A stretch of 32,000 nt of DNA from assembly GCF_000017945.1 (NCBI RefSeq), contig NC_009776.1, positions 210,001 through 242,000 of the forward strand, in the 5' to 3' direction. The notes below the pieces were generated by a model. That model was not told the origin of the DNA. It was given only the letters and a program-made list of their open reading frames with translations, and searched no databases. Position numbers and translations under genes: made by a program. Shown one piece after another: positions 4,022 to 23,081 of the stretch (positions within the stretch are counted from its first letter, which is position 1; each line of letters starts with the position of its first letter). This DNA is from Ignicoccus hospitalis KIN4/I (GTDB lineage: Archaea > Thermoproteota > Thermoprotei_A > Sulfolobales > Ignicoccaceae).

Positions 4022-4341
4022 CCGTGACCGCGATAGAGGCCGAGTTGAAGACTGCCTTGAGAACGGGAAAAGTGGTCTTGGGCGCTAAACAAACCATAAA
4101 GTTGTTGAAGACCGGGAAGGCCAAGGCGGCCATAGTCTCGGCCGGGGCTCCTCCGATAGTGAGGAGGGACGTGCTGTACTACGCCAAGCTCAGCAACATA
4201 CCGGTGTACGTGTACCCCGGGACCAGCAAGGAGCTGGGCACGCTGTGCGCCAAGCCCTTCGTCGTGAGCGCCCTCGCGGTAGTAGACGAGGGCGACTCTA
4301 AAATAGTGGACGCAATAAAAGCCGAGAGCAGGGTTGAGTGA
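4018..4341 (+). CDS. rpl30e: 50S ribosomal protein L30e (eL30)
   Basis: 107 aa with [33 protein letters not shown]...[21 protein letters not shown], typical of the L30e/L7Ae fold family. ATGA overlap with the rpoA2 stop. Canonical position between rpoA2 and nusA. Confidence 0.93.
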
Positions 4342-4342
4342 A

Positions 4343-4774
4343 ATGCCGGATATAGTCCTCACCCCGGAAGAGTTTAGGTACATGCAGACCTTCGCTACGC
4401 TGACCGGAGTGACGCCCGTCGACTGCATAGTGGACCCGACCTTTGATAGAATAATCTTCCTAGTGAAGCCGGAGGACGTGGGAAGGGCGATAGGCAAGAG
4501 GGGCTTTATGGTTAGAAAGTTGAAGGAAATATTGAAGAAGCAGATAGAGATAGTCCCCTACAGCGACAACATTGAAGAGATGGTAAAGAACGCCTTGGCC
4601 CCGGCTAGGGTGATTGGAGTCAGGGTGAGCAAGACTCCAAAGGGGAAGGTCGTGTACGCCAGAGTGAACCCCAAGGATAAGGGAGTGGCCATAGGTAAGG
4701 AGGGCCGAAACGTCGCCAAGGCCCGTTTAATCCTTAAAAGACACTTCGATGTGGACTCGCTCGTGGTGGTCTGA
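4343..4774 (+). CDS. nusA: Archaeal NusA-like transcription termination/antitermination factor (two KH domains)
   Basis: GKRGFMVRKLKEIL and GKEGRNVAKARLIL are two KH-type GxxG motifs. I prefer the ATG at 4343, 2 nt after the L30e stop. The ORF track begins at the in-frame TTG at 4334. Confidence 0.9.
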   Translation: MPDIVLTPEEFRYMQTFATLTGVTPVDCIVDPTFDRIIFLVKPEDVGRAIGKRGFMVRKLKEILKKQIEIVPYSDNIEEMVKNALAPARVIGVRVSKTPKGKVVYARVNPKDKGVAIGKEGRNVAKARLILKRHFDVDSLVVV

Positions 4775-4788
4775 GGGGGTGAGGTGCG

Positions 4789-5232
4789 ATGCCCGGTAAG
4801 AAAGCTCCCAACGGACTGTTCGCGGCTAGGAAGCTGGAGAGGAAGAGGCTCAAGTTCAGGTGGAGCCAGAGGGAGTTCAAGAGGAGGATGTTGAAGCTCA
4901 AGGAGAAGTACGACCCACTGGAAGGGGCTCCAATGGCACGCGGGATAGTCCTCGAGAAGGTAGGCGTGGAGGCGCGTAAGCCTAACTCCGCAGTGAGGAA
5001 GTGCGTGAGGGTGCAATTGGTTAAGAACGGGAAGGTAGTAACGGCCTTCGTGCCCGGGGACGGCGGCCTCAACGTGATATCCGAACACGACGAGGTGGTG
5101 ATAGTCGGCATAGGAGGGCCCAGAGGGAGGTCGATGGGTGACATCCCGGGAGTTAGGTACAAAGTCGTGCTGGTGAACGGGGTATCCTTGGACGCCATCC
5201 TGAAGGGTAAAAAACAGAAGCCCGTGAGGTAA
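4789..5232 (+). CDS. rps12: 30S ribosomal protein S12 (uS12)
   Basis: 147 aa. [30 protein letters not shown] and GVRYKVV are hallmark uS12 segments. A GGTGAGGTG Shine-Dalgarno-like sequence lies just upstream of the ATG. Confidence 0.96.
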
Positions 5233-5235
5233 GGT

Positions 5236-5745
5236 TCAGTCCTCGTAGTCCCCGACTTCCCCGTACTCCCTCTCCAAGAGTTTTTCGTCAACGTATATGG
5301 GCTTGTCGGTTATCAAGGCCAAATATATGGCGTGGCTGGGTATCATGGGTATCGAGAGCTTCACCGAACCCAAGTTCAAGAACAGCTTGGCGGTGTAAAG
5401 GCCGCTGTCCTCGTCGAGTTCGTCTATTACGACCTTCTCTATAACGCTCTTAAAATTCTCTATCACGCTCTCGAAGTACGGCAATATGTCGAAGAGGGAG
5501 TTCCTCGCGTTCCGGGGGACCTCCCCGAAACCCTCCTTCAAGTTCTTGATAGCGTACACTATCTCTATGGGGATGTAGTACAAGCGGAAGGTCCTAGAGT
5601 CTTCAAGCTTACAAATCATGACGGTGATAGGCGTTAGGTGGGCGTTTTGGTATATTTCTTCTATCCTCGCGTCTACGTCGACGACCCTAACCAGCCTGCC
5701 CTCCAAGGCGCTCGCTCCCTCCGTCTGCCTCGGTTTTGGGATCAA
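5236..5745 (-). CDS. Bifunctional-nuclease (BFN / DUF151) domain protein
   Basis: 169-aa ORF on the opposite strand, between rps12 and rps7. The layout is VRVVDVD...[30 protein letters not shown]...[21 protein letters not shown]...[26 protein letters not shown]. From memory, this matches the DUF151 pattern (beta strands, a P..HDL-like segment, the RPSDAI-like motif IPSHAI, then PIYV). The start is ambiguous: TTG at 5745, or TTG at 5706, which has a GGAGGGAG sequence upstream. Confidence 0.65.
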
Positions 5746-5748
5746 AGC

Positions 5749-5756
5749 CTTAAAAC
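5749..5756. promoter_or_regulatory. TATA-like box (CTTAAAAC) in the 45-bp divergent spacer between the BFN gene and rps7
   Basis: This is the only A/T-rich octamer in 5746..5790. It lies about 38 nt upstream of the rps7 ATG at 5791. Read on the minus strand (GTTTTAAG), it lies about 46 nt upstream of the alternative BFN start at 5706. Confidence 0.3.
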
Positions 5757-5790
5757 GTGGGAGCGCAAAGCGCTAGCGGGTCACGAAGGC

Positions 5791-6378
5791 ATGGAGAGGG
5801 AAACTATAAGTCCCTTGGAGCCCAAGTTGTTCGGCAAGTGGGACTACGACGGCGTGGAGATAAGGGACCCTAGCCTTAAGAAGTACATATGCTTGAAGCC
5901 CGTGTGGACCCCGTACACCGCCGGTAGACACGAGAAGAGGAGGTTCGGGAAGGCCGAGGTCCCCATAGTGGAGAGGTTGATAAACAAGCTCATGAGGCCT
6001 GGAAGGAACATGGGCAAGAAGGCCAAGCTCTACAGCGTGGTGGAGAGGGCCTTCGACTTGATATACTTGATGACCGGGCAGAACCCCCTGCAAGTGCTCG
6101 TGAGGGCCATTGAAAACTCCGCCCCTAGGGAAGAGACCACCAGGATAATGTACGGCGGTATAGTCTACCACGTGGCTGTGGACGTAAGCCCCCAGAGGAG
6201 GGTAGACCTAGCTCTGAGGTTCCTAACCGAAGGCGCCAGGATGAAGGCGTTCAAGAGTCAGAAGCCCTTGGAGGAGACTCTCGCGGAAGAGATAGTGGCC
6301 GCGGCTAACGACGACCCCAAGAGCTACGCTATACAAAAGAAGGAGGAAATCGAGAGGATAGCGCTCTCCTCGCGCTAA
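5791..6378 (+). CDS. rps7: 30S ribosomal protein S7 (uS7)
   Basis: Lies in ORF 5638..6378. The internal ATG at 5791 gives [33 protein letters not shown], a typical archaeal uS7 start. The sequence continues through [22 protein letters not shown] and a C-terminal [13 protein letters not shown]. Confidence 0.94.
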
Positions 6379-6380
6379 CC

Positions 6381-6402
6381 TTCATTCCTTTTTCCTTTCT
6401 TC
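6381..6402 (+). terminator. Pyrimidine/T-rich tract (TTCATTCCTTTTTCCTTTCTTC) after the rps7 stop
   Basis: Archaeal terminators are oligo-T tracts. This is the only such tract between the rps7 stop (6378) and the cdc6 promoter. Confidence 0.35.
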
Positions 6403-6403
6403 G

Positions 6404-6412
6404 GCTATTTAT
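6404..6412 (+). promoter_or_regulatory. TATA box candidate (GCTATTTAT) for orc1/cdc6
   Basis: A/T-rich element about 35-40 nt upstream of the GTG start at 6447. This is consistent with a short-leader transcript. Confidence 0.4.
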
Positions 6413-6446
6413 CCCGGGCCGGCGCCTACACTGTGACGGGTGACCA

Positions 6447-7658
6447 GTGCTGACCGCGGACCTCGACGACATACTCGACGACGTCTTCGAACGGGTGACC
6501 AGCTCGAGGATATTCAAGAACAGGGACGTGCTGCTGCCGGATTACTTGCCTAACAAGCTTCCCCATAGAGAAGAACAAATAAGGAAGGTGGCCAGCGTCC
6601 TAGCCCAAGCCCTCAAGGGCTACAAGCCGAACAACTTGTTCATATATGGCCTCACGGGCACCGGTAAGACAGCGGTCGTAAAGCTGGTAGTCAAGAAGTT
6701 AAGTGAGAAAGCCGTCGAGAAGGGAGTTAAATTGAAAATAACCTTCATCAACACCAAGAGGGACGATACCCCGTATAGGGTGCTAGCGAGGATGCTGGAG
6801 GACATAGGGATAAGGGTACCCCCGACGGGAGTGGCGACGGCGGAGCTCTACTCGAGGTTCAAGAAGTTCCTGGACAAGAAGGGAACTTTGATGATACTCG
6901 TGTTAGACGAGATAGACTATCACGTAAAGAAGTACGGCGACGACTTGCTCTACAAGCTGACCAGGATAAACGAGGAGCTCCAAAGGTCCAAGGTATCCTT
7001 GGTTGGAATAACGAACGACGTCAACTTCACCAGCTGGCTCGACCCTAGGGTAAAGTCCTCCTTGGGCGAGGAGGAGCTCGTGTTCCCCCCGTACACGGCC
7101 GAGCAGCTGAGGGACATATTGAAGGACAGGGCGGAGATGGCGTTCGTAGAGGGGGTGCTGGGGGAGGGAGTGATAGAGCTCTGCGCGGCCTTGGCTGCTA
7201 GGGAAAACGGGGACGCTAGGAAGGCCCTCGACTTGTTGAGGATATCCGGCGAAATAGCCGAGAGGAGCGGCTCCTCGAAGGTTACCGTAGAGCACGTCAG
7301 GAGGGCTTGGGAGCAGATGGAGAAGGACAGGGTGGTGGAGATAGTGAAGAGCTTGCCCTTACACAGCAAGTTGATACTGTATTCCATACTCCTCTTGACG
7401 AAGGGCGGGAAGACCACCTACACCGGCGAGGTGTACCGCAAGTACAAGGAGCTGACCGCGGAGCTCGGGATAGAGACCCTAACGCTTAGGAGGGTCGGCG
7501 ACTTGATTTCGGAGTTAGACATGTTGGGGCTCATCTCCACCGAGGTGGTGAGCAGGGGGAGGAGGGGGCTCACTCGAGTGATCAGCTTGGAGAGCGACCC
7601 AGAGGCTATAAGAAAGGGGCTGCTCGTGGACCCCACGGTGGCCGAGGTCGCCGGTTAG
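6447..7658 (+). CDS. cdc6: Orc1/Cdc6 replication initiator (AAA+ domain plus winged helix)
   Basis: 403 aa. The N-terminal LPDYLPNKLPHREEQI matches the Orc1/Cdc6 signature. Walker A is GLTGTGKT and Walker B is LVLDEID. ARENGDARKALDLLR is the sensor-2/ISM region. The C-terminal winged-helix-like tail contains LRRVGDLISELDMLGLI. Confidence 0.93.
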   Translation: MLTADLDDILDDVFERVTSSRIFKNRDVLLPDYLPNKLPHREEQIRKVASVLAQALKGYKPNNLFIYGLTGTGKTAVVKLVVKKLSEKAVEKGVKLKITFINTKRDDTPYRVLARMLEDIGIRVPPTGVATAELYSRFKKFLDKKGTLMILVLDEIDYHVKKYGDDLLYKLTRINEELQRSKVSLVGITNDVNFTSWLDPRVKSSLGEEELVFPPYTAEQLRDILKDRAEMAFVEGVLGEGVIELCAALAARENGDARKALDLLRISGEIAERSGSSKVTVEHVRRAWEQMEKDRVVEIVKSLPLHSKLILYSILLLTKGGKTTYTGEVYRKYKELTAELGIETLTLRRVGDLISELDMLGLISTEVVSRGRRGLTRVISLESDPEAIRKGLLVDPTVAEVAG

Positions 7659-7725
7659 CTTTGACGACGGTCGCCCCTCCGCGGCGTGTCCGGTCGTAGC
7701 CCTCCAGACCGCCCTCTGGCCCCCC

Positions 7726-8178
7726 GTGGTCGTAAGGCTCCAAGCGCACGCGTTCAAGAAGGACCCCGGCGACGTGACTGGGGCCTTCTTGCCTTTGGCC
7801 GAGGGCGACGTCGTGATAATAGATAGCATAACCATCTGTGGCTTGGGCTACGTGGACCCCTCGAAGTTCGAAAGGGCAGTGGTGGTGAGTAAGTTCGTAC
7901 CCCGCGTGACCAAGGCTGTGCCGGTAGCCAGGAGGCTCTACGGCGACGACCGCTTTCGGGAGGTAGCGGAGGAGTACCTAAGGAGGGTGAAGTGCTTCAA
8001 GAGGGGGCCCCACAAGCTCTGCGTCGCGCCTTACGGGATGGACTACCAAGAGGCATTGAAAATAATTGAAGAGAGGAGCGTTAGGAGGGGGCTGCCGGAA
8101 GAGGTGATACTAGCACACGAGCTGGCCTCGGCGGCGGGGCTCTGGCTCACGCGAGCCCCTTCTCCACTAGGAAGTTAG
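7726..8178 (+). CDS. Hypothetical protein (150 aa)
   Basis: Same-strand ORF 67 nt after cdc6 with a GTG start. Its composition resembles neighbouring genes. I recognise no family. The 3' end overlaps the convergent prs gene by 32 nt. Confidence 0.4.
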   Translation: MVVRLQAHAFKKDPGDVTGAFLPLAEGDVVIIDSITICGLGYVDPSKFERAVVVSKFVPRVTKAVPVARRLYGDDRFREVAEEYLRRVKCFKRGPHKLCVAPYGMDYQEALKIIEERSVRRGLPEEVILAHELASAAGLWLTRAPSPLGS

Positions 8179-9043
8179 ATAGGTACTCACTCACGTCTAT
8201 TACCTTAGTTATCGTCGGATAGTCCCTAGCTAGGGTATTAGCCGTTATGACCCTCTCCACTCCGGCCTCCCGGAGCTTGTTCTCCGCGTCGCCCACCATG
8301 AGCGCGTGCGCGACCAGCGCTAGGACCCTCTTGGCCCCGGCCGCCTTGAGCTGCTTCGCCGCCAAGGCCAGCGTTGAGCCAGTGGACACCATGTCGTCTA
8401 CTATTATTACGGTCTTGCCCTCCGCGCTTATCTCCTTAGGCCTTATGGTCACTTCGCCCGTCACTCTGTCCCTCCTCTTCTCCAAGTAGTCCCAAGGCGC
8501 CTTTAGAACGGACGCGACGCTCTTCGCCCTAGCAGTGGCGCCCCGGTCCGGGGCGAGCACCAAGGGGTCCTCGACCTCGTCTTTTATCTTTTCGGCTAAG
8601 TAAGGTAAGACGCTGACGTTGAACGCTCCCCCTCCGAACTCGCTCAAGGAGTACTCTTTGTGTATGTCCACTACTACCAAGTAGTCCAAGTCTAGGTTAG
8701 AAAGCGTCTTGAGCAAGGTCTTTATCGAGACGGGCTCCCCCTCCCTGAACCTCCTGTCTTGCCTTGCGTAGGGCATGTAGGGCATGAGCAAGGTCACGCT
8801 CTCGGCGCCTAGGTCCTTGAGGGTATCTATGGTGAGCAAGACTTCTATTACCCTATCGTTTTGGTCGGGGAAGCCGGTGTGTACGACCAGTACGTCCTCG
8901 CCCGAGACGGGTATGGGTATGCGCACGTAGCTCTCCCCGTCCGGGAACTTCTTCCTCTCTATGAAGTGGGCCTCGGCGTTCAAGGAAGCCACCAAGCCGT
9001 CGCACAGCCCCTTGGGCGGGGTCAAGCATAGCACCTTACCCAC
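8147..9043 (-). CDS. prs: Ribose-phosphate pyrophosphokinase (PRPP synthetase)
   Basis: 298 aa. PYMPYARQDRRF is the PRPP synthetase signature, and VIIVDDMVSTGSTL is the PRPP-binding loop. Confidence 0.93.
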   Translation of the reverse strand: MGKVLCLTPPKGLCDGLVASLNAEAHFIERKKFPDGESYVRIPIPVSGEDVLVVHTGFPDQNDRVIEVLLTIDTLKDLGAESVTLLMPYMPYARQDRRFREGEPVSIKTLLKTLSNLDLDYLVVVDIHKEYSLSEFGGGAFNVSVLPYLAEKIKDEVEDPLVLAPDRGATARAKSVASVLKAPWDYLEKRRDRVTGEVTIRPKEISAEGKTVIIVDDMVSTGSTLALAAKQLKAAGAKRVLALVAHALMVGDAENKLREAGVERVITANTLARDYPTITKVIDVSEYLSNFLVEKGLA

Positions 9044-9076
9044 TGCCTTCTCCCGGTTCCGGGGACGAGGGGGAGC

Positions 9077-10117
9077 CTATAGAGAAATGGGGAAGCGCAG
9101 CAAACACACCACGTCGCCGAAGGGCCTCAGCCTCTCCCAAGCCTCGGTCCCCTTGGGCACTATTATCACTTCCGCGCCCTTCTTCTCCGCGAGCTCCACC
9201 AACTCCACCGCCCTCTCCCCTAAGTCGGGGGAGTGCAAGAGGTCGTCCGATATTATGAGGGTTTTAACCGCGTTCGCTTGGGCGGCGGTCATACAGTCGT
9301 CGACCCCGTAGAGCGCGTACCCGTCGCCCCGGGCGACGTGTTTCACGAACTCCTCGAGGGCCTCGAGAGCTTTGATGCTCTCCAGCTCCTTCGCGACCCC
9401 CCTCAAGGAGCCCTTCCTTATCGCCTCTAAGACGCCCGCCCTCCCCCCGGAGGAGGCGCTGTCCACCTTAACCTTGAAGCCTTCCTCGGACAAGCGTTGG
9501 GCGACCTTGTCCTTAAGGAACCCGGGGCCCACCACTACCACGTGGTCGAGGTTTCTTAACTTCAGCTCCTCAGAAACCCTCTTCGCCAGCTCGTTTATCT
9601 TCCTCTCGGTCGCCGCCTCGCGGCCCTCGTCCCCCTTCCCCGGGAGCCTGAGGGAGCCCTCGAAGACCCACTCTATTCCTTGTCCCCTGACCACCGCTAA
9701 GGAGTACTCGTCGTAGTCCACAGCGAGGACCGGGACTTGGGGCTTCCTCTCCTCCCCCTTCTTGAGCCTCTCCAAGAGCTGCGCGAGGCCCCTCTCCCTA
9801 ATTATGGTTATCTCCTTCCCCGGGTAGACCTTTATCGCGTGGTGCGAGCCTATTAAGCCGAACTTGTCCGGCCCCTCTACGACTACCCCCTTGACCCTCA
9901 ATACGTTGCTGAACGCTTGGAACTCCGAGCCCGTGACCTTAATGGTCAACGTCATGGGTATCTTTTCCTTGCCGGAGCTCCCCGCCACGCTCCTGGCGGT
10001 CCTCGCCCGGACCAAGTCCCCGGGCCTCAAGGCGCTGTGTAAGATCCACACGTCCTCCTCGTCTTCCACCCTTACCTTGACTTCCCCCTTAGACTCGTTG
10101 ACCTCTAAGACTCGCAC
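9077..10117 (-). CDS. pelA: Pelota / Dom34 mRNA surveillance factor
   Basis: 346 aa with an eRF1-like three-domain layout. The N-terminus is MRVLEVNESKGEVKVRVEDEEDVWILHSALRPGDLV. The central and C-terminal domains include VVVGPGFLKD and TLIISDDLL. Confidence 0.9.
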   Translation of the reverse strand: MRVLEVNESKGEVKVRVEDEEDVWILHSALRPGDLVRARTARSVAGSSGKEKIPMTLTIKVTGSEFQAFSNVLRVKGVVVEGPDKFGLIGSHHAIKVYPGKEITIIRERGLAQLLERLKKGEERKPQVPVLAVDYDEYSLAVVRGQGIEWVFEGSLRLPGKGDEGREAATERKINELAKRVSEELKLRNLDHVVVVGPGFLKDKVAQRLSEEGFKVKVDSASSGGRAGVLEAIRKGSLRGVAKELESIKALEALEEFVKHVARGDGYALYGVDDCMTAAQANAVKTLIISDDLLHSPDLGERAVELVELAEKKGAEVIIVPKGTEAWERLRPFGDVVCLLRFPISL

Positions 10118-10199
10118 TTTGGACCCCGGAGGGCCTTCCGGGAAGAGTTAATTCGTTGGGACGCGGCGCTCGAGGAATGTAAGCCGTGAGAGGCTTTGG

Positions 10200-10299
10200 T
10201 GGGGCCGCCGCCGGGATTTGAACCCGGGACCTCGGGATCTCCGCGGCCTCAGCCGGGCCTCCACAGTCCCGCGCTCTAACCAGCTGAGCTACGGCGGCC
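10200..10299 (-). tRNA. tRNA-His (anticodon GTG) with a canonical-position intron, an encoded G-1 and an encoded CCA
   Basis: Hand-folded cloverleaf on the minus strand: G(-1) GCCGCCG TA GCTC AGCTGGTTA GAGC G CGGGA CTGTGG[intron, about 22 nt, 10239..10260]A TCCCG AGGTC CCGGG TTCAAAT CCCGG CGGCGGC C CCA. All stems are Watson-Crick. The extra 5' G opposite discriminator C is the tRNA-His identity feature. Confidence 0.9.
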
Positions 10300-10339
10300 A
10301 GCTTCCGGGCGGCGCCCCAGCGTTCCGCTCCCTGGAAGG

Positions 10340-10347
10340 TTTAAAAA
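10340..10347 (-). promoter_or_regulatory. TATA box candidate (TTTTTAAA on the minus strand) for tRNA-His
   Basis: Isolated A/T octamer about 44 nt upstream of the mature tRNA 5' end. This is compatible with a short 5' leader. Confidence 0.35.
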
Positions 10348-10404
10348 GTTGGAGCACGGGACCGCGCCGGAGCCTCGGCCCCGAGGGTTCGGAACTCTGA
10401 GCCT

Positions 10405-10647
10405 TTACCCCCTATGAAGTACCGGGTAGAGCTCCACCACGTCGCCGTCCTCCAAGCTCTCGTCCAACAGAGCCGACCTCTCTACGCCGTTGACGAATAC
10501 TAGCAATATTGCCTTGGGTTCTCCGTCCTCGTCGACGTACCTCTCCAAGCCGAAGAGCTTCCGGGCGCAGAGCAACAACTCCTTCAAGTTCTTGGCCTCT
10601 AGCTCCGCCCTCCGGCCGTCCCAGAGCCTCAGTTCCACCATCCTCAC
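10405..10647 (-). CDS. Small beta-grasp (MoaD/ThiS/ubiquitin-like) protein, putative
   Basis: 80 aa. The C-terminal part, ILLVFVNGVERSALLDESLEDGDVVELYPVLHRG, resembles the ThiS/MoaD pattern (VNG...L.dGDeV.i.P...GG) but ends in RG rather than GG. The start is GTG at 10647 or ATG at 10641. Confidence 0.45.
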   Translation of the reverse strand: MRMVELRLWDGRRAELEAKNLKELLLCARKLFGLERYVDEDGEPKAILLVFVNGVERSALLDESLEDGDVVELYPVLHRG

Positions 10648-10653
10648 AGCCTC

Positions 10654-10668
10654 GTGAAGTTACTTCAC
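10654..10668. promoter_or_regulatory. Perfect 15-bp palindrome GTGAAGT-T-ACTTCAC in a divergent promoter spacer
   Basis: Read directly from the sequence. It sits between the beta-grasp gene start (10647/10641) and the usp start (10703). A CTTTAAC TATA-like element follows at 10674..10680. Confidence 0.3.
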
Positions 10669-10702
10669 CCGCGCTTTAACGGGCCCCCGAGGGCTCTGGG
10701 CT

Positions 10703-11128
10703 TTGCTGGAGTGCGCGTTGCTGGCGTACGACGCTTCACCCCCCTCTCGGAAAGCTTTACACTTCGCGAAGGAGTTAGCGAAGAAAACTGGTTCGGAGCT
10801 CTTAGTACTTTACGTTATAGATATAAAGAAACTAAACGAAGTTTTAGGTAACTTAGACGTGGAAAAGCTGAAAGTTCTGGAGAGGAGGGCTAACTCTTTG
10901 GTGGAGGACGCAGTTAAGTACTTGAACGAAGAAGGCGTCAAGGCTAGGGGGCTGGTGAAGAAGGGGCCTCCGCCGGAAGCGATAGTGGAGACGGCGGCGG
11001 AGGAGGGCTGTTCAATGATAATTGTGGGCTCCCGCGGCCTCAAGGGCCTCAAGAGGGCGCTCTTGGGTAGCGTTTCAGATAAGGTGCTTAGGATAAGCAA
11101 CGTACCGGTGCTCATCGTAAAGGGCTAA
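10703..11128 (+). CDS. Universal stress protein (UspA family)
   Basis: 141 aa. LLAYDASPPSRKALHFA is followed by the C-terminal ATP-binding motif IIVGSRGLKGLKRALLGSVSDKVLRISNVPVLIV (G-2x-G-9x-G(S/T)). Confidence 0.85.
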   Translation: MLECALLAYDASPPSRKALHFAKELAKKTGSELLVLYVIDIKKLNEVLGNLDVEKLKVLERRANSLVEDAVKYLNEEGVKARGLVKKGPPPEAIVETAAEEGCSMIIVGSRGLKGLKRALLGSVSDKVLRISNVPVLIVKG

Positions 11129-11167
11129 AGGTAGATTAGGCCTCTGAGCGGTAGAAAGTCATGAGGT

Positions 11168-13149
11168 GTGTCCTTGACCGAAGAACAGAAGACTGTGTTA
11201 CCGATCAGTAAGGGCGTGGTCCCTACTGGAAAGCTCCACGAGATGAGGAAGAGGGCCCTCGAGGACCCGGAGGGCTTCTGGTCGGAGATCGCCTCGGAGC
11301 TCTATTGGAAGAAGGGTTGGGATAAGGTAGTCGAGGGCGAGGCCCCCTACTTCAAGTGGTTCGTGGGCGGGAAGACCAACATATCCTACAACGCCTTAGA
11401 CAGGCACGTTAAGACTTGGAGGAGGAACAAGGCCGCCATAATCTGGGAGGGCGAGCCCGGCGAGACCAGGGTCATGACTTATTACCAGCTCTGGAAGGAA
11501 GTAAACCGCTTCGCCAACGTGCTGAAGGATTTGGGCGTTAAGAAGGGAGACAGAGTGACCATTTACATGCCCATGGTTCCCGAGGCAGTCGTCGCTATGC
11601 TGGCGACCGTGAGGGTCGGCGCGATCCACAGCGTGGTCTTCTCCGGGTTCTCTGCGAAGGGGTTGGCGGAGAGGATAAACGACGCTCAAGCTAAGGTCGT
11701 GATAACGGCCGACGGCATGTGGAGGAGGGGGAAGAAGCTCATACTCAAGGAAATAGTGGACAAGGCTTTGGAGGAGACGCCGTCCGTGGAGAGCGTGGTG
11801 GTTTACAAGAGGCTGGGCGAGGAGGTCAACATGGTCGAGGGCAGGGACTACTGGTGGGACGACCTCATGGAGGGCGCGGAGGACTACGCGGAGCCCGAGT
11901 GGGTGGAGAGCGAGCACCCCTCCTTCATCCTCTACACTTCCGGCACCACCGGCAAGCCCAAGGGGATAATTCACGACACCGGGGGCTACATGGTAGGAGT
12001 CTACGCTACGATGAAGTGGGTATTCGACATAAGGGACGACGACTTGCACTGGTGTACTGCAGACATAGGCTGGATCACCGGCCACTCCTACGTGGTCTAC
12101 GGCCCCTTGCTCCACGGGGCCACTACCCTCATGTACGAGGGCGCCCCCGACTACCCCAAGCCCGACCGCTGGTGGAGCATAATTGAGAAGTACGGTGTAA
12201 CTACCTTCTACACGGCTCCCACGGCTATAAGGATGTTCATGAGGTATGGCGAGAAGTGGGTGGAGAAGCACGACCTCAGCACCTTGAGGATCTTGGGCAG
12301 CGTCGGCGAGCCCATAAACCCGGAGGCGTGGTGGTGGTACTTCAAGCACGTCGGCAAGGGCAAGTGTCCCATAGTAGACACTTGGTGGCAGACGGAGACC
12401 GGGCACACATAGTAGACACTTGGTGGCAGACGGAGACCGGGCACATAATGATAAGCCCCGCCCCCGGGATAGAGCTGGTCCCCCTGAAGCCGGGGAGCGC
12501 CACCTTCCCGTTGCCCGGCGTGGACGCCGAGGTGGTGGACGACAACGGCAACCCCGCGCCTCCCGGAACTAAGGGCTACTTGGTCATAAGGAAGCCGTGG
12601 CCCGGCATGTTGCACGGTATCTGGGGAGACCCGGAGAGGTACGTGAGGACCTACTGGAGCAAGTTCCCCGGGTGGTACTTCACCGGCGACTACGCGATGA
12701 AGGACGAGGACGGCTACTTCTGGATATTGGGTAGGGCGGACGACGTGATCAAGGTCGCCGGCCACAGGCTGGGCACCTTGGAGATAGAGAGCGCCTTCGT
12801 CGCCCACCCCGCGGTGGCCGAGGCGGCGGTGGTGGGCAAGCCCCACCCGGTCAAGGGAGAGGGCATAGTGGCCTTCGTAGTGTTGAAGGAGGGTTACCAG
12901 CCCAGCGACGAACTGAGGGATGAGCTGAGGAAGTGGATAAGGGAGACCATAGGCCCCGTCGCCACTCCGGACGAGATACACTTCGTTACCAAGTTGCCTA
13001 AGACTAGGAGCGGAAAGATAATGAGGAGGGTGCTTAGGGCGGTGATAAGCGGCCAGCCCTTGGGAGACTTGAGCACCTTGGAGGACGAGGCGTCCGTGGA
13101 GGAAGTGAAGAGGGCGGTAGAGGAGTTGAGGAGAGACTTAGGAATGTGA
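11168..13149 (+). pseudogene. acs: AMP-forming acetyl-CoA synthetase, interrupted by a 38-bp tandem duplication (frameshift plus premature TAG at 12410..12412)
   Basis: ORF 11168..12412 carries the ACS N-terminal domain ([14 protein letters not shown]-binding motif, ...[14 protein letters not shown]). The continuation, [20 protein letters not shown]...[10 protein letters not shown], lies in another frame from 12406 to 13149. Removing one 38-bp copy would give a single ORF of about 659 aa. Confidence 0.85.
12370..12445 (+). repeat. Perfect head-to-tail duplication, 2 x 38 bp (CATAGTAGACACTTGGTGGCAGACGGAGACCGGGCACA)
   Basis: Copies at 12370..12407 and 12408..12445 are identical base for base. 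The flanking bases differ, so the unit is exactly 38 bp, which is not a multiple of 3. Confidence 0.97.
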
Positions 13150-13160
13150 CCTCGAGGAAC

Positions 13161-13184
13161 CCTTTCTTTCACTTTAAATAAAAA
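13161..13184. terminator. A/T-rich convergent terminator region (CCTTTCTTTCACTTTAAATAAAAA)
   Basis: T tracts on both strands lie between the acs stop (13149) and the stop of the convergent 138-aa ORF (13186). Confidence 0.35.
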
Positions 13185-13185
13185 C

Positions 13186-13602
13186 TTACCAACCCAAGAC
13201 CCCGCCTATGTCCGCGGTCTCCTCGGCCTCGGTCGCGCACTGGACCGCTAGGGCCCCTACCTTGTCGCTGAGCCAGTTCCTAACGTAGTCCAGCTTGTTC
13301 TCCTCCACGACGTACATGTCGCTCAAGGCGCTCTCGCCGCACTTGCCGGAGAAGTGGGCCTCTAACATGTTACCCCTCTTCCCAAAGGTGACTTCCACGT
13401 TCATCTCGTACTTCCCGGGCTTTACCTTCCTAGTCTCGCCGCCGGCGCTTATCTGGCCCTCCTTGACTACCTCGAAGACTATCTTCATTGAGAGGGAACC
13501 CTCGCCCTCTTGCACCTCCACTTGAGGCTCGCCTATGAACCCTCCCAAGGCGTTCTCCAAGCCCTTGAGGGCTGCCTTCTGGGCCGACCTCGCGCTTATC
13601 AC
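13186..13602 (-). CDS. Hypothetical protein (138 aa)
   Basis: Clean ORF with a GTG start and codon usage like its neighbours. It lies downstream of, and co-directional with, the metallophosphoesterase gene. I recognise no family. Confidence 0.45.
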   Translation of the reverse strand: MISARSAQKAALKGLENALGGFIGEPQVEVQEGEGSLSMKIVFEVVKEGQISAGGETRKVKPGKYEMNVEVTFGKRGNMLEAHFSGKCGESALSDMYVVEENKLDYVRNWLSDKVGALAVQCATEAEETADIGGVLGW

Positions 13603-13693
13603 GGCTCCTTCCCAAGAGAGAAGGCCCTCTGGGGGTGTAATAGGCCTCCGTCCCGTGACCCGCTCCTCACCCAGTCGGCCAAGTACGCGATCC

Positions 13694-14443
13694 TCATCGG
13701 CCCAAGGGAGCTTCCTCCACGAGCAGGCCCGCCAAGTCCTCCAGAGCGGGCAGCTCTACCACCCCCAGCTCCGGGTCCGCGGCGTAGGGGACGGCCTTCT
13801 TGAGGTCCAGCTCCTTCAGTATAGGCGACAAGTAAGCTTCTCTATTTGGAGTAACGCTGGTCCCGGACTGGTAGAGGCCCACCGCAGGCAACACCACGAC
13901 CACTCCCCTCCGCGAGGGGACCTTTAGGTAGCACGGGAACTTCGCAGTGGCACCCACCGGGTCCCTCAGCGCCACGCTCGGGTGCTCGTGGCCCATAATA
14001 GTTACCTCGCCCAGCTCCGCGGCCTTGTGGCCGTGGATTACCTTCACCCCCTCGCTCAAGTCCAGCTCGTCCACCACCTCGAACCCGGCGTCCTCCACCA
14101 GCTTCTTGACGAAATTGTCGTGGTTCCCCCTTACTAACACCAACTCCACACCCTTCTTCTGAGCCGCCGACAAGAAGGCCTCTACGTCCCTCTTTTCCAT
14201 CTTGCCCAGCCTTCCGAACTGGTGTTTCAAGTCGCCCGCTACGACGACCTTCTTGACCGCCTTGGAGACGCTCTCTAGGACCTCCAGCGCCCTCCTAAGC
14301 TGGGCGGGGGGCAAGAAGACCCCCTTTCTGCTCATCTCTTCCTCGAAGCCCAAGTGGAGGTCCGCTATTATTGCATAGCCCTTGTACAGCAAGGCCCCTT
14401 GAGGGGTGGCGTAAAGTCCCCGCTCTAGCTCTACGGCTTCCAC
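13694..14443 (-). CDS. Calcineurin-like metallophosphoesterase (SbcD/Mre11-related small archaeal family)
   Basis: 249 aa. Motifs appear in order: IADLHLG, VVAGDLKH, RGNHD, HGH and MGHEHP, which is the metallophosphoesterase motif series. Confidence 0.8.
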   Translation of the reverse strand: MEAVELERGLYATPQGALLYKGYAIIADLHLGFEEEMSRKGVFLPPAQLRRALEVLESVSKAVKKVVVAGDLKHQFGRLGKMEKRDVEAFLSAAQKKGVELVLVRGNHDNFVKKLVEDAGFEVVDELDLSEGVKVIHGHKAAELGEVTIMGHEHPSVALRDPVGATAKFPCYLKVPSRRGVVVVLPAVGLYQSGTSVTPNREAYLSPILKELDLKKAVPYAADPELGVVELPALEDLAGLLVEEAPLGR

Positions 14444-14473
14444 TCGGGACCCCAGAGCTTAGGGACGTAGGGG

Positions 14474-15136
14474 TTAATACTTAGGGGAGCGCCTCAGCTC
14501 GCCCTCCCCGGTTATCCAGTACTCGCCGTCGGTCCTCACTTCCCTCTTCCATATCGGGGGCTCGTGCTTCAACCTCTCTAAGATCTCCCTAGCGGCTTTG
14601 AACGCGCTCTCCCTATCCTTTCCGCTAACTGCTATTATCAAGGTTTTTTGTCCCACCTTACGGGGCCCTAAGAACTGCACCACCCTCGCGTCTAAGGCCC
14701 CCCACTTCTTCAGTTCCTCCTCCACTATCTTTTCCATAAACTCCTTCACGCTCGGATGAGCTTCGTATATTAGCTCTAATACTTTAGATCCTTTAGATTT
14801 TACCGTCCCAACGAAGATTACCGTGGCACCCGACTCGGGGTCGCCCAACTCCTCCACCAAGCCGTCCAAGCTCCAGTCCTCCTCTTCGGTGAGCACCACC
14901 CTCCCCCCTCCGCCGGCGGCGGGGGGCACCAGCTCGTACTCCCCCTCCGTTAAGGGCTCTTCGTCCTCGGCGAACCTGCCGTCCTTCAAGACCACGGGCT
15001 CTGGGTAGCCCTCCGGCAACAGCTCGAGAACCTTCCTCTTGAGGTCGGCCACCTTAGAGCCCTCCGGCAACTCGAGCTCCGCGGCCTCACCGAGCGCGTC
15101 CTTGTACATAGCGTACAACTTCAACTTGACCTTCAA
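14474..15136 (-). CDS. moaE: Fused MoaD-MoaE molybdopterin synthase (small plus large subunit in one ORF)
   Basis: The N-terminal ~77 aa are MoaD-like and end in YELVPPAAGGGG. The C-terminal part is MoaE-like (VIFVGTVKS...YEAHPSVKEF...VGQKTLIIAVSGKDRESAFKAAREILERLKHEPPIWKREV). TTG start. Confidence 0.78.
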   Translation of the reverse strand: MKVKLKLYAMYKDALGEAAELELPEGSKVADLKRKVLELLPEGYPEPVVLKDGRFAEDEEPLTEGEYELVPPAAGGGGRVVLTEEEDWSLDGLVEELGDPESGATVIFVGTVKSKGSKVLELIYEAHPSVKEFMEKIVEEELKKWGALDARVVQFLGPRKVGQKTLIIAVSGKDRESAFKAAREILERLKHEPPIWKREVRTDGEYWITGEGELRRSPKY

Positions 15137-15200
15137 CTCGCGCCTCCGCCTTCGTTACGCCCCCGCGGGATTTGAGGGGAGCGGTCGTCCGCGCCCAAGC

Positions 15201-15209
15201 TTATATAAA
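15201..15209 (+). promoter_or_regulatory. Strong TATA box (TTATATAAA)
   Basis: Lies about 36 nt upstream of the ATG at 15241, inside an otherwise GC-rich divergent spacer. Confidence 0.5.
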
Positions 15210-15240
15210 TGGAACGGGTAACTGGTAGGGGCTCCGCAAC

Positions 15241-16707
15241 ATGTACTACCGTACACGAGAGGCTAGGTCCGAGTTCCTGAGGAAGGTTAGGGAGGAGGCA
15301 ATAGACTTCCCCGACTACGAGGTAATAGACTCGCCGTCGCCCGAGCTCTACAAGTTCATTTTTCCCTTCAAGGAAGTGCCGCGCGTGTTCTTCGACGGCA
15401 TAATACTCCCTACGGAGCTGCCCTCAGAGATATGGATAACGGACACCACCTTCAGAGACGGCCAGCAAGCCCGGGAGCCCTACACGGTCGAGCAGATAGT
15501 GCGCTTGTACAAGTACTTACACGAGCTCGGAGGCCCCTTAGGGAAGATTAAGACCACAGAGTTCTTCCTGTATACAGAGAAGGACAAGGAGGCAGTGAGG
15601 AGGGTAAAGGAGCTGGGCTACAAATATCCGATCCCCACCGGGTGGATAAGGGCGAAGAAGGAAGAGCTCAGCTTGGTTAAGGAGGCCGGCTTGGAGGAGA
15701 CCGGAATACTCGCCTCCATAAGCGACTACCACATATACTTCAAGTTTAAGGCTTCCAGGGGCAAAGTCGTAGAGAAGTACTTGAGCGTCGTGGAGGAGGC
15801 CCTTAAGATGGACATAATACCCAGGGTGCACTTGGAGGACATAACTAGGGCAAACATATTCGAAGTGGTAGTCCCGTTCGTCCGAAAGTTAATGAAGTTG
15901 AGCGAGAGGTACGGGCTCCCGGTGAAGGTTAGGTACCCCGACACGCTGGGCGTCGGCGTGCCCATAGTGGAGGCGATGTTGCCTAGGAGCATCCCCAAGC
16001 TAACTTGGGTCCTCCGCCACGTCTGCGGCGTGCCGAGCGAGTGGCTGGAGTTCCACGGCCACAACGACTTCCACTTAGGAGTGGCTAACGCGGTGAGCGC
16101 TTGGCTCTACGGCGCCGGGCTGAACAACGGCACGCTGTTAGGGATAGGCGAGAGGGCGGGCAACGTGCCGATAGAGGCCTTAGTCTTCGCCTACGCCCAG
16201 CTGAAGCACGGGTTTGACGGGATGAACACTAAGGTGATAACCGAGATAGCCAAGTACTACCGCGACGAGCTGGGTTACGAGGTACCGCCTTACTACCCCA
16301 TAGTAGGGAGGAACTTCGCCGTGACGAGGGCCGGAATCCACGCGGACGGGCTCTTGAAGAACCCGGAGACCTACTTGCCCTTCGACACGGAAGGGATCTT
16401 GGGCGTGAAGCCCGGAGTCGCCATAACTCCCTACGCGGGCTTGGCCGGCATAGTCTACTGGATAAACAAGACTTTCGACCTAAAGGGGGAGGAACAAGTG
16501 AGCAAGAAGGACCCGAAGGTGCAAGCGATATACAAGGACGTCATGAAGCAGTTCGAGCACGGCCGCTTGACTGCCTTGAGCGACGCCGAGATGCTGGCGC
16601 TGGTCGCCAAGCACGCGCCGGAGCTCATCAAGAAGTACTGGGACAGGCTCCCGGAGGACTTGAAGGCCAAAGCGGTGGCGCTGCTGGACCTCGCGGAGAG
16701 GAGATAA
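15241..16707 (+). CDS. HMGL-like (pyruvate carboxyltransferase) family enzyme: homocitrate / 2-isopropylmalate / Re-citrate synthase-like
   Basis: 488 aa. ITDTTFRDGQQ is the DRE-TIM metallolyase N-terminal motif, and HGHNDFHLGVANAVSAW is the metal-binding HxH motif. GTLLGIGERAGN is also present. It has a ~65-aa N-terminal extension and lacks a LeuA-type regulatory C-terminal domain. Confidence 0.8.
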   Translation: MYYRTREARSEFLRKVREEAIDFPDYEVIDSPSPELYKFIFPFKEVPRVFFDGIILPTELPSEIWITDTTFRDGQQAREPYTVEQIVRLYKYLHELGGPLGKIKTTEFFLYTEKDKEAVRRVKELGYKYPIPTGWIRAKKEELSLVKEAGLEETGILASISDYHIYFKFKASRGKVVEKYLSVVEEALKMDIIPRVHLEDITRANIFEVVVPFVRKLMKLSERYGLPVKVRYPDTLGVGVPIVEAMLPRSIPKLTWVLRHVCGVPSEWLEFHGHNDFHLGVANAVSAWLYGAGLNNGTLLGIGERAGNVPIEALVFAYAQLKHGFDGMNTKVITEIAKYYRDELGYEVPPYYPIVGRNFAVTRAGIHADGLLKNPETYLPFDTEGILGVKPGVAITPYAGLAGIVYWINKTFDLKGEEQVSKKDPKVQAIYKDVMKQFEHGRLTALSDAEMLALVAKHAPELIKKYWDRLPEDLKAKAVALLDLAERR

Positions 16708-16741
16708 GAGCTTTTCCTCTCCCAGTAAGCCGGGACCCCCA

Positions 16742-16927
16742 GTGAGCTTGTTGGAGAAGGTCGAGTTAGCCCTTTCTATAACCTTCATAATATTGTTAAT
16801 AGCCTTGGCGGTGGTCGCAGACTCCAACGGCTTGGGGGCGGAGGGGACCTTGGCCCTCGCCGCGGCGACCGCGGCCTCGGGCGGGGCGGCGATACTGCTC
16901 CACCACGTGAGCGCCGACAAGCCTTAG
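16742..16927 (+). CDS. Possible small membrane protein (61 aa)
   Basis: GTG-start ORF with two hydrophobic segments (LALSITFIILLIALAVVA and LALAAATAASGGAAILL). There is no other support. Confidence 0.25.
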   Translation: MSLLEKVELALSITFIILLIALAVVADSNGLGAEGTLALAAATAASGGAAILLHHVSADKP

Positions 16928-17298
16928 CGCTTCACCACGTCTAAATAATCTTGTATGAAGCCTTTCTTCACCATCTCCTCGTACGTCCTCCATATCCTCT
17001 TCACGTTAGTGAACTTAGTCTCGAAGCCCTTCTGCTCCAAGATCTCGTAGACCACGTCCACGAACTCTTGGGGCGAGGGCCCCGCGGAGAGCGCCTCTAC
17101 TATAACCTTCATCAAGTCCTTCCTGGTCGGCCTCCTCTTGTTCACCTTCCTCACCCTCCTCTCCTTCTCTATCTCCTCTAGGACCTCACGCAGCGCCTCC
17201 TCGGGGACCCAGTCGAGCTGCAAGGCGACCCCAAGGACTAAAACCTCCGTTCTTGATAAGTTTTGGTGCCGCAAGGTGTACTTCCGAATAAAAGGCAC
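16924..17298 (-). CDS. Hypothetical protein (124 aa, basic centre KERRVRKVNKRRPTRK)
   Basis: ORF with normal composition and a lysine/arginine-rich middle segment. I recognise no family, and the start is uncertain. Confidence 0.4.
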   Translation of the reverse strand: MPFIRKYTLRHQNLSRTEVLVLGVALQLDWVPEEALREVLEEIEKERRVRKVNKRRPTRKDLMKVIVEALSAGPSPQEFVDVVYEILEQKGFETKFTNVKRIWRTYEEMVKKGFIQDYLDVVKR

Positions 17299-17538
17299 TT
17301 ACACAAAAAGGACAGAAGAGTTCTGCGAGTCTTGCGTGCCGGTGAGCTTGCGTGAAGGAGGTTCGCTTGAAGGAAGTGAAGACGGTGAGGACTAGGTGTT
17401 CCAAGTGCCCCCTCAGTAGGATCTGCTTAAAAAGGCGCGACTGAAGTTAGAGACGGTGTAGCCGCCATAGCGGAAGAGGTTCTTGACAAGAGTTTATTTC
17501 TGCTTCACGAGGACGGCTACTCCGTTTACCTGGACGAG

Positions 17539-17922
17539 GTGTTAACGGAAGTCTACCAGCAGTGCCTAGAGAGACCCAGCGACGCTACCTTGGAAGACTT
17601 GATGAAGACCCACACCAAGTGCATAAGTGAGGTCTTGAAGATAAGGCCGGTAATAACCATGATCGAGGGCGAGGAGAAGGCGAAAACCATCATGGTCGAC
17701 AAGGACGACGTTTACTTGTTGGAGTGCGAGGACATAAGCGACGACCTCCTCGAGGACGCCAAGCTAACCAACGAGCTCTTGTTCGCTTTCGACGACGTCT
17801 TAATAGACGAGCTGGAAGACGCAGTAAAGGTAATCATGTGTACGTTGAAGAAGAGAAAGTTGAAGGAAGAAGAGAAGAAGGAGATGTCTAACTTTTGGAG
17901 TTTGAAGTCTAACAGTTTTTAG
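17539..17922 (+). CDS. Hypothetical acidic protein (127 aa) with a lysine-rich tail
   Basis: Low-GC ORF with a GTG start. The reading frame is open, and looks protein-like, from 17431, but has no canonical start before 17539. It overlaps the convergent DUF885 gene by 4 nt. Confidence 0.35.
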   Translation: MLTEVYQQCLERPSDATLEDLMKTHTKCISEVLKIRPVITMIEGEEKAKTIMVDKDDVYLLECEDISDDLLEDAKLTNELLFAFDDVLIDELEDAVKVIMCTLKKRKLKEEEKKEMSNFWSLKSNSF

Positions 17923-19367
17923 AACTTCGAGAGGAGGAGTTCCGACAGCACGTCCACCGGCAGCGCCCCGTAGCCCAACACGGTCGCGTGGAACTCGTAC
18001 AAGCTGAACGAGCTGCCCGCGTACTCCCGGTAGAGCTCCCTCAGCTCCTTCAACCTCATCTTCCCGTAGGAGTAGGACAGCTGGTACCCGGGCGTCAAGG
18101 TGTACCTCAAGGCCTCCGAGTAGGCCGAGGACTCGTCCAACATGGCCACGTTTTTCAACTCCTCCACCGCTTCCTCAAAGCTCATCTTGCCCGTGCTCAA
18201 GCCCACGTCCACGTAAACTCTGACCCACCTCCACAGCTCGTCCTTCTTCACTTGCCAAGCGTAGCGCGGGTGGGCCTCGAAGCCTTGTTCGAACATGAGC
18301 TCCTCCGCGTAGTGGGCCCAGCCCTCTACGTAGTCGGTCGCGGACGCCAAGTATCTATACTTCGAGGGCAAGTGGAAGCTCAACTGAGCGTGGTGGCCGG
18401 GGTAGGTCTCGTGGACCGCGGTGTTCAGCACGTCGAAGTAGTCCTTCTTCGCGGAGCCGGGGGTGACCAACAGGTAGCCCACGTTGTAGGGTGAGAAGGG
18501 CTGGGGAGGGTCGTAGGCGGCGTAGGGGATGGTCGGCCTGAGGGGCGCGGGGGTGTCTATGACCTCTAAGTCCTCGTCTGGGGCCAGCGGCACGAGCTTC
18601 CTCTCCTTGACGAAGGCTCTGGCTTTGCTCACGGCCTCCGAGTAGGCCCCCTTGAGGTCGCTAACCTCCTTGCCCTCTGGAGGCTCTCCGAGCTCTTCAA
18701 CTATTTCCTTCGCTTTTTTCCTACCTAAGGCTTCCAGCTCTTCGGCGCTGGCCTTTATCCCTCTGACCCGTAAGAGCGTCGAGAACAAGCTCTCGCCCAT
18801 TGGCTGGTAGCCCTCGTCCGCCTCGAGCCCGTCCAACCACTTGTCGTATTCTTCCACGGACCTCTTGACTTCCTCGGGGGCGCCCAGCTCCAGTAACAAC
18901 AATTTGAGGCCTTGAATCTCAGCCCTAGCCAAGTTAACCCATAAGGACTTAGGCCTCTCCAACAGCTCTTTGCTCTCTTCGAACAGCTTGGGCAAGGCCT
19001 TTAGCCTGCTCGCCAGAGCAGCCCTCTTGTGGTCCTCCGAAGCGGGGGAGAGCAATACCGTTAACAAGAGCTCGGAGGCCAGCGAGGGGGCCACGGGGTA
19101 GTGCTTCCAAGGCCTCCACTCCCCCTCGAGCAGCACCTCTACCTCCAGCTGTCTGACCACCTCCCCCTTGTCCACCTCGAGCTCCTCGTCGTCCGGGGTC
19201 CACTCCTTGAGCTTCGCCGCGCCCTCCAAGCACCAGTCCACCAGCTCTTCTACGGCCCTCTTGCTGAGGGACGGAACCTTGAAGTCGTACTCCCTAAGTC
19301 CCATCGCCGAGGCGTAGTGAGGGTTGAGCTCGAACCACTTTTTGACAATCTCGTTGATCGGTTTCAA
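17919..19367 (-). CDS. DUF885-family protein (putative metallopeptidase-like, HExxPGHH motif)
   Basis: 482 aa. As far as I recall, TAVHETYPGHHAQLSF followed by EGWAHYAEELM is the DUF885 signature. Confidence 0.75.
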   Translation of the reverse strand: MKPINEIVKKWFELNPHYASAMGLREYDFKVPSLSKRAVEELVDWCLEGAAKLKEWTPDDEELEVDKGEVVRQLEVEVLLEGEWRPWKHYPVAPSLASELLLTVLLSPASEDHKRAALASRLKALPKLFEESKELLERPKSLWVNLARAEIQGLKLLLLELGAPEEVKRSVEEYDKWLDGLEADEGYQPMGESLFSTLLRVRGIKASAEELEALGRKKAKEIVEELGEPPEGKEVSDLKGAYSEAVSKARAFVKERKLVPLAPDEDLEVIDTPAPLRPTIPYAAYDPPQPFSPYNVGYLLVTPGSAKKDYFDVLNTAVHETYPGHHAQLSFHLPSKYRYLASATDYVEGWAHYAEELMFEQGFEAHPRYAWQVKKDELWRWVRVYVDVGLSTGKMSFEEAVEELKNVAMLDESSAYSEALRYTLTPGYQLSYSYGKMRLKELRELYREYAGSSFSLYEFHATVLGYGALPVDVLSELLLSKF

Positions 19368-19404
19368 GAGCTTATACCGGGAGCCCTTTAGGGGTCGGGC
19401 GTAT

Positions 19405-20394
19405 TTAAAGCCACGGAACTTCTACCTCGTCCAGCCTCCACCTCTGCCTCACGAACGCCTCCTCGGGAGCGACGGTGAAGCCGTGCTTGTAGTAGAGCAA
19501 GCCGGTCCAAGCGATCATGGCGCCGTTGTCCCTCGCTAGCTCGTAAGGTATGGGCTTGAAGGAGACGCCCCTCTCCTCGCTCATGAGCGCCACCTTCCGC
19601 TGGAGCCTCTTCGAGCCCGCCACGCCCCCCACTAGGACCACCTCCTTTAGCTTGGAGTGGGCCAACGCCCTCTCGCCCACTTCCACCACCATGTCGTAAG
19701 CGGTTTCCCAGAGGCCGTAGCATACCTTCTTCTTGTCCTCCTTCTTCCACGCCCTCAGGGCTGCCGTTAAGAGGCCCGAGAAGGAGAGGTCCACCCCTTG
19801 GACTGTGTAGGGGAGGTCCGCCGGCTCTTCCGCCCCTTCGGAGCAGAGCTCCACCACGTGTACCCCTCCCTTGACGAAGGGGGGCCCTATCCCCACCTCC
19901 CTGGCGAAGGTGTCTAACAAGTTGCCCAAACCTATGTCTAAGGTCTCCCCGTACACCCTGTACCTCTTTATCGCTGGGGCAGAAATTATCGTGCTTCCCC
20001 CGGATACGTAAATCGCTACGGGTTTAGAGAAGCCGGTCACGGCCCTAGCTATCTCTATGTGAGCCAACGAGTGGTTGACCGGCACTAGGGGCTTTTCGTA
20101 GAAGGCGGCGAGGGCCCGCGCCATGACGGCTCCCGTCCTCAAACAAGGCCCCAGCCCGGGGCCCGCGCTGTAGGCCACCGCGTCCAAGTCCTCCGGCCTT
20201 AGCCCCGCCACCTCCAAGGCCCTCTTTACGAGCCTCGGCCCCCACTCCGCGTGGTGCCTCGCGGCCTCCCTCGGGTGGATCCCGCCTTCCTTCGGCACGT
20301 AGGTGTGCATCTCGTTCGCCAGCACCTCTGCCCTCTCGTTAACTATTCCCACCCCTATGGTGTGGGCGGTGCTCTCTATGCCGAGGACGTACAA
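19405..20394 (-). CDS. kae1: Kae1, tRNA N6-adenosine threonylcarbamoyltransferase (KEOPS catalytic subunit)
   Basis: 329 aa. MYVLGIESTAHTIGVGIV..., VNHSLAHIE (the metal-binding HxxxH region), GPGLGPCLRTG and VLVGGVAGSKRL are all present. It is not fused to Bud32. Confidence 0.93.
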   Translation of the reverse strand: MYVLGIESTAHTIGVGIVNERAEVLANEMHTYVPKEGGIHPREAARHHAEWGPRLVKRALEVAGLRPEDLDAVAYSAGPGLGPCLRTGAVMARALAAFYEKPLVPVNHSLAHIEIARAVTGFSKPVAIYVSGGSTIISAPAIKRYRVYGETLDIGLGNLLDTFAREVGIGPPFVKGGVHVVELCSEGAEEPADLPYTVQGVDLSFSGLLTAALRAWKKEDKKKVCYGLWETAYDMVVEVGERALAHSKLKEVVLVGGVAGSKRLQRKVALMSEERGVSFKPIPYELARDNGAMIAWTGLLYYKHGFTVAPEEAFVRQRWRLDEVEVPWL

Positions 20395-20407
20395 GGCGTC
20401 CTCCGGG

Positions 20408-20923: not shown

Positions 20924-20949
20924 CCGTTTTTACCTACTCGTCGGTAAGT

Positions 20950-20960
20950 CTTTAAAAAAG
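20950..20960 (-). promoter_or_regulatory. CTTTTTTAAAG (minus strand): T6 terminator tract for the ATPase gene and TATA-like box for the V4R-like gene
   Basis: Starts immediately after the ATPase stop codon (20961..20963). It is centred about 32 nt upstream of the ATG at 20923. Confidence 0.35.
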
Positions 20961-22355: not shown

Positions 22356-22429
22356 TTCGACCCTCTCCCGCGTTCTGCCCGACGGAGACGTTAAGGGTTG
22401 GGGCGGACCCCTACGCGCCGGGAAAGGCC

Positions 22430-23077: not shown

Positions 23078-23081
23078 GCCC

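Follow-up and report, generated by a model that had tools for sequence, protein, structure and literature searches.

[quoted passage not shown] The actual chromosome would carry the 38-mer once and acs as a single uninterrupted gene, whose product would be an abundantly expressed acetyl-CoA synthetase (ACS) of 645 aa. The extra copy would shift the reading frame and lead annotation pipelines to call two genes, Igni_0256 and Igni_0257. An error in Igni_0256/0257 has already been published; what is added here is its nature, an exact 38-bp tandem duplication without microhomology at its boundaries.

A perfect 38-bp duplication in the reference sequence

In the window (the whole stretch of DNA that was analysed, 32,000 nucleotides), the order of the sequence at the locus is GTGTCC, CATAGTAGACACTTGGTGGCAGACGGAGACCGGGCACA, CATAGTAGACACTTGGTGGCAGACGGAGACCGGGCACA and then TAATGATAAGC. 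The two copies stand head to tail and have 0 mismatches by string equality, and Tandem Repeats Finder reported the interval 12370-12445 with a period of 38, 2.0 copies, 100% matches and a score of 152. Together with direct reading, these results confirm the perfect head-to-tail duplication given in the preliminary description of this DNA, and ORF reading likewise bears out the frame shift and the TAG stop codon that it had placed at the junction. A direct scan for perfect tandem duplications with a period of at least 12 bases found this one as the sole case in the 32-kb window, and the chance expectation of a 38-base duplication is about 4e-19.

The junction of the two-copy allele reads CACA followed by CATAGTAG, and its junction 35-mer is ACGGAGACCGGGCACACATAGTAGACACTTGGTGG. 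The single-copy allele reads GTGTCC, the 38-mer and TAATGA across this site. The repeat is exactly 38 bases long, as the bases outside it mismatch (C at 12369 versus A at 12407, and C at 12408 versus T at 12446), and no flanking microhomology at the duplication boundaries was found when the bases just outside were compared on both sides. The downstream part of the gene lies in a different frame from the upstream part and ends at a stop codon at 13147-13149. The coordinates of all these elements are collected in Table 1.

Table 1. Window positions of the duplication, the gene fragments and the restored gene
Feature	Coordinates	Strand	Description
Copy 1 of the 38-bp unit	12370..12407	+	Encodes a 12-residue peptide (preceded by P) in the frame of the upstream gene part
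Copy 2 of the 38-bp unit	12408..12445	+	Identical to copy 1; read in the frame of the downstream gene part
TAG stop codon	12410..12412	+	Arises in the upstream frame from the out-of-frame copy 2
N-terminal fragment ORF	11168..12412	+	414 aa from GTG 11168, ends at TAG 12410-12412
Igni_0256 / ABU81440.1, deposited N-terminal fragment	from TTG 11174	+	412 aa (P0130)
C-terminal fragment ORF, Igni_0257 / ABU81441.1	12448..13149	+	233 aa, ATG 12448, MISPAPG..., exact match to P0127
acs (AMP-forming acetate--CoA ligase), probable true gene	11174..13149	+	645 aa once one 38-bp copy is removed

The start of acs is ambiguous. The longest ORF begins at GTG 11168 and gives 647 aa, which is also the annotated length of the I. 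pacificus orthologue. The start at TTG 11174 (645 aa for the gene and 412 aa for the fragment) is the one used by GenBank, by the JGI and Logan gene calls and by the proteome table of 2011.

The restored gene is a full-length acetyl-CoA synthetase by sequence

When one copy of the 38-mer was deleted, a collinear ORF was obtained, of 647 aa if GTG 11168 is the start and of 645 aa if TTG 11174 is. A single collinear ACS frame had been expected from this deletion and was indeed recovered, and the expected length of about 659 aa did not hold. The restored protein scored 1044 bits against NF001208 (NCBIfam; cut-off 657) and 1007.6 bits against the equivalog model TIGR02188 (cut-off 724.95), with residues 23-636 covering positions 7-628 of the 629 in the TIGR02188 profile. 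It is also collinear with the solved ACS structures 8rpk and 2p2f/1pg3/5jrh (Salmonella Acs), and the alignment is gap-free at the junction. The restored frame thus aligns with ACS homologues from end to end, as had been named beforehand for a genuine ACS gene.

Members of the adenylate-forming family share a P-loop-like motif, a GRxDD hinge and a catalytic lysine in the SGKIMRR motif. In the restored protein the core motifs follow in order, the P-loop-like motif at residues 256-266, TWWQTETG at 405-412, the hinge GRADDV at 509-514 and SGKIMRR at 602-608, and they match Salmonella Acs (2p2f/1pg3) column for column. The gene is otherwise intact, as had been stated, with a full-length restored protein and every core motif present. 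Judged by its sequence, the restored gene is a full-length AMP-forming acetyl-CoA synthetase (acetate--CoA ligase). The frameshift falls at residue 413 within WWQTETG, a motif of the N-terminal domain, and the inter-domain hinge at 509-514 follows about 100 residues later. This position agrees with the earlier remark that the break lies in a catalytic core motif.

An intact 647-aa protein of I. pacificus is 91% identical to the restored protein, and ACS homologues on genome contigs reached at most 63% identity among the matches listed. One source gives the name '3-hydroxypropionyl-coenzyme A synthetase' to Igni_0256 (UniRef A8A938) and to the I. pacificus orthologue. This looks like a transferred name, and it is at odds with a score far over the cut-off of the acetate--CoA ligase model.

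Independent assemblies carry a single copy

The split products (P0130, 412 aa, and P0127, 233 aa) were recorded on one contig only, that of the reference CP000816 (1,297,538 bp). The best database match to the restored protein was an intact protein of 645 aa that is 100% identical to it (P0001); P0001 and P0132 are the same protein, and their sole difference is the translation of the TTG start. The intact 645-aa product was found on seven contigs from JGI (3300030446), Logan (SRR4136252, SRR606249, ERR9765749 with the same contig in 6 samples, ERR9765777 and ERR9765779) and ENA (ERZ926311) assemblies. SRR606249 is presumably the synthetic community of Shakya et al., which included KIN4/I DNA. 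A TPA genome bin has an unsplit version of 622 aa (HIH90253.1) on a 172-kb contig.

At the nucleotide level, the 38-mer was present once in 7/7 contigs matching the window; five of these contigs are 100% identical to the window, in stretches as long as 15.4 kb. By BLASTN, contig L083 corresponded to window positions 1473-16905 and contig L084 to 10274-23149, both with 100.000% identity and 0 gaps. In each case exactly 38 query bases fall within both alignment blocks, which means that each contig holds the 38-mer once. The same single-copy pattern was observed by BLASTN for L082, L086 and L087, and L081 and L085 likewise have one copy. The alignments of the single-copy contigs put the 38-base gap at copy 1 (12370..12407), and the choice of which copy is the extra one is arbitrary. 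When the reference was compared with later assemblies of this strain over 21.7 kb, they differed in the duplication alone. A single copy in other data had been named in advance as the mark of an artefact, and exactly this was found, in 7/7 contigs and in the re-sequencing by the authors described below. Two scans of metagenome contigs gave 0 matches to the two-copy junction and also 0 matches to a single-copy-specific 50-mer included as positive control, which makes the first result uninformative.

Two of the contigs have peculiarities of their own. L081 (JGI 3300030446, Ga0169454_105272) contains an N run of 53 bases at 311-363, one substitution relative to the window, and three deletions of 10-12 bases near 3432, 4608 and 5306. 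These indels were considered as further tandem-duplication polymorphisms and rejected: they are an N run and small deletions in a scaffolded contig, no other assembly shares them, and they represent faults of scaffolding or assembly and no polymorphisms. In L085 (Logan ERR9765777), two 1-base gaps were observed at about 4846-6311, corresponding to 14.5-16 kb of the window, where an HMGL-like gene is broken into pieces of 278 + 225 aa. The same gene gives one 488-aa product in L083 and L084, and its split in L085 is probably an error of that assembly. The case shows how frequently such split genes are specific to one assembly.

Published record of the locus

The genome of KIN4/I was determined from 3-, 6- and 40-kb Sanger libraries with Phred/Phrap/Consed. 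According to the methods account of that project, misassemblies were fixed, Consed editing, primer walks or PCR served to close gaps, and the reported error rate was <1 in 50 kb. Podar et al. (2008, Genome Biol 9:R158; PMC2614490) noted Igni256/257 as adjacent genes that normally form one polypeptide, and suggested that they represent two subunits or else a pseudogene. Giannone et al. (2011, PLoS One 6:e22942; PMC3149612) re-sequenced the region, called the split of Igni_0256/0257 a sequencing error, reported one ORF of 645 aa and announced a correction in GenBank. The nature of the error is left unstated in the passages of both papers that deal with Igni_0256/0257, and a full-text literature search on Igni_0256 and Igni_0257 gave no matches.

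The same paper of 2011 states that an independent analysis agreed and also confirmed acetate as a substrate of Iho0256 (PMC3149612). This analysis is cited there as reference 22, which in the reference list is an unrelated paper; the authors most likely meant Ramos-Vera et al. 2011, which is entry 23. In supplement file 2 of PMC3149612, Iho_0256 is listed with 645 aa, its first two count columns read 767 and 825, and Iho_0258 follows directly after it with no row for Iho_0257. The 645 aa of this supplement is the length obtained here by deleting one 38-mer. The text of the same paper ranks ACS, as a single 645-aa product, among the most abundant proteins.

Origin of the second copy and alternative explanations

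The second copy of the 38-mer is absent from the independent matching data and from the re-sequenced region, and how it entered the record can be suggested from the assembly procedure. Most likely, an end-to-end contig join or an edit in Consed would have kept a 38-base overlap twice. Another likely origin would be a consensus taken from a clone that had gained the duplication during cloning. With no microhomology at the boundaries, a cut-and-paste join fits better than slippage. Artefacts of overlap retention at contig joins resemble the duplication in several respects: a perfect head-to-tail duplicate of tens of bases, without divergence or microhomology at its ends, standing alone in a sequence that is otherwise perfect and missing from independent assemblies. 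The case differs from them in that a contig join at this locus is presumed, and in that the assembler was Phrap, with Consed editing. Overlaps of k-1 are routine in de Bruijn assemblers, unlike Phrap. Three points count against an artefact: a 38-base duplication is atypical for an error of Sanger base-calling, apart from the duplication the reference has no fault over the 21.7 kb compared, so the mistake would be isolated and unusual, and a genuine variant in the DNA prepared in 2007 is a formal alternative.

In this alternative, the 38-bp duplication was real and dominant in the 2007 culture or DNA batch, where it knocked out acs, and later cultures lack it. Zero divergence between the copies and a gene that is otherwise intact would fit a very recent event. 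The loss of acs might be tolerable, given that I. hospitalis grows without acetate (PMC2614490), and a reference otherwise free of errors over 21.7 kb, from a project reporting <1 error in 50 kb, speaks for a real sequence. Against it stand the single copy in 7/7 independent contigs and in the authors' own re-sequencing, the rank of the 645-aa ACS among the most abundant proteins (PMC3149612), and ends without the microhomology that would promote slippage. The authors of the re-sequencing, with the data in hand, called a sequencing error (PMC3149612). A private mutation of this kind is therefore regarded as unlikely. An extension of it, in which a two-copy allele that was real in the 2007 culture later collapsed and so toggled the abundant, outer-membrane-associated ACS off and on, is very unlikely. 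If true, the toggle would let the organism pass back and forth, in a crude and reversible way, between assimilating acetate and growing purely as an autotroph.

Perfect tandem duplications can collapse through recombination or slippage. A reversible on/off switch, with appreciable formation and collapse and phase variation of acetate assimilation, would account for one record with two copies and others with one, and is nevertheless highly improbable. The two-copy state occurs in exactly one record and in 0/7 independent contigs (consensus assemblies would hide minority alleles), the site has neither repeat-prone sequence nor boundary microhomology, and the orthologues are intact. Both allelic states were not found across independent samples, as the two-copy products were seen on the reference contig only. 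Genuine frameshifting tandem duplications that cause loss of function or phase variation share with this one the perfect copies, a unit length that is no multiple of 3 and a premature stop codon; they should be found again in independent reads or cultures and most often start from short direct repeats, whereas neither holds for the duplication here. Of the three readings offered earlier for the zero divergence, the artefact is favoured by the single-copy contigs and the re-sequencing, the on/off state is unsupported, with two copies in the reference and in 0/7 other contigs, and a very recent event found no support.

A functional two-piece enzyme, one of the options of Podar et al. 2008, in which the 412/414-aa N-terminal fragment and a re-initiated 233-aa C-terminal fragment assemble after translation, is hardly credible: ATG 12448 follows soon after the stop, the 233-aa product is annotated, and the symbiont N. 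equitans is noted in the genome literature for split genes, but the break at residue 413 lies inside WWQTETG and at no domain boundary (hinge GRADDV 509-514), the two ORFs would encode 12-13 residues in duplicate, the protein table has a single 645-aa entry (PMC3149612), and the split is absent from the other sequence data of the strain and in practice refuted by the single-copy re-sequencing. A break at residue 413, about 100 residues ahead of the hinge, is implausible as a natural split point. Natural archaeal split genes, as in Nanoarchaeum equitans, resemble Igni_0256/0257 in that two neighbouring ORFs together account for a protein usually made as one chain. Every sequence of the organism shows such a natural split, the junction peptide is encoded once, and the division usually falls between domains, whereas the Igni_0256/0257 split interrupts a core motif and is not seen in other data. 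The split enzyme re-initiated at ATG 12448 that had been considered earlier is accordingly unsupported, with its products on no other contig and the break off a domain boundary.

The preferred reading, an error in the reference record, finds its closest counterpart in the published Igni_0256/0257 error itself (CP000816). The locus, the two ORFs and the organism are the same, and the 645-aa ORF given in the passages on that error is the product of the 38-mer deletion made here and also the product found in the independent assemblies. Mayer et al. 2012 reportedly described a monomer of ~77 kDa, a size that would agree with the full-length protein.

Neighbouring genes

The neighbours of acs encode a Usp protein (WP_052569855; 136-aa version ABU81439) and a phosphoesterase (ABU81443). 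Like the two ACS fragments, these proteins were identified by exact sequence matches to I. hospitalis KIN4/I entries on the reference contig. Upstream of the Usp gene, a tRNA gene of 96-99 nt lies on the - strand at window positions 10200-10298 (Rfam RF00005, 60.8 bits). ARAGORN reported this interval as 'tRNA-?(His|Pro)' with the 4-base anticodon gtgg and a long extra arm, also with the intron option on, and the gene probably represents a crenarchaeal tRNA with an intron. Immediately downstream of acs, and running towards it, a 138-aa ORF (Iho_0258) occupies 13186-13602 on the - strand; it is annotated as 'hypothetical protein' and has no Pfam match on record. In the proteome table of 2011, Iho_0258 has 185 and 72 in the first two count columns (PMC3149612), which indicates that it is expressed.

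Consequences

The two fragments are still carried by GenBank, RefSeq and UniProt, as ABU81440 / WP_011998292.1 / A8A938 and ABU81441 / WP_274377262.1 / A8A939. Their persistence in the window and in RefSeq means that the GenBank correction of 2011 was evidently never made. Such fragments can mislead pathway reconstructions, pseudogene counts and lists of 'split genes' for the Ignicoccus-Nanoarchaeum system. When a perfect tandem duplicate whose length is no multiple of three is met in an otherwise intact conserved gene, independent assemblies should be checked first. The practical point is one of data hygiene; the biological importance is very small, because I. hospitalis would have an ordinary intact acs.
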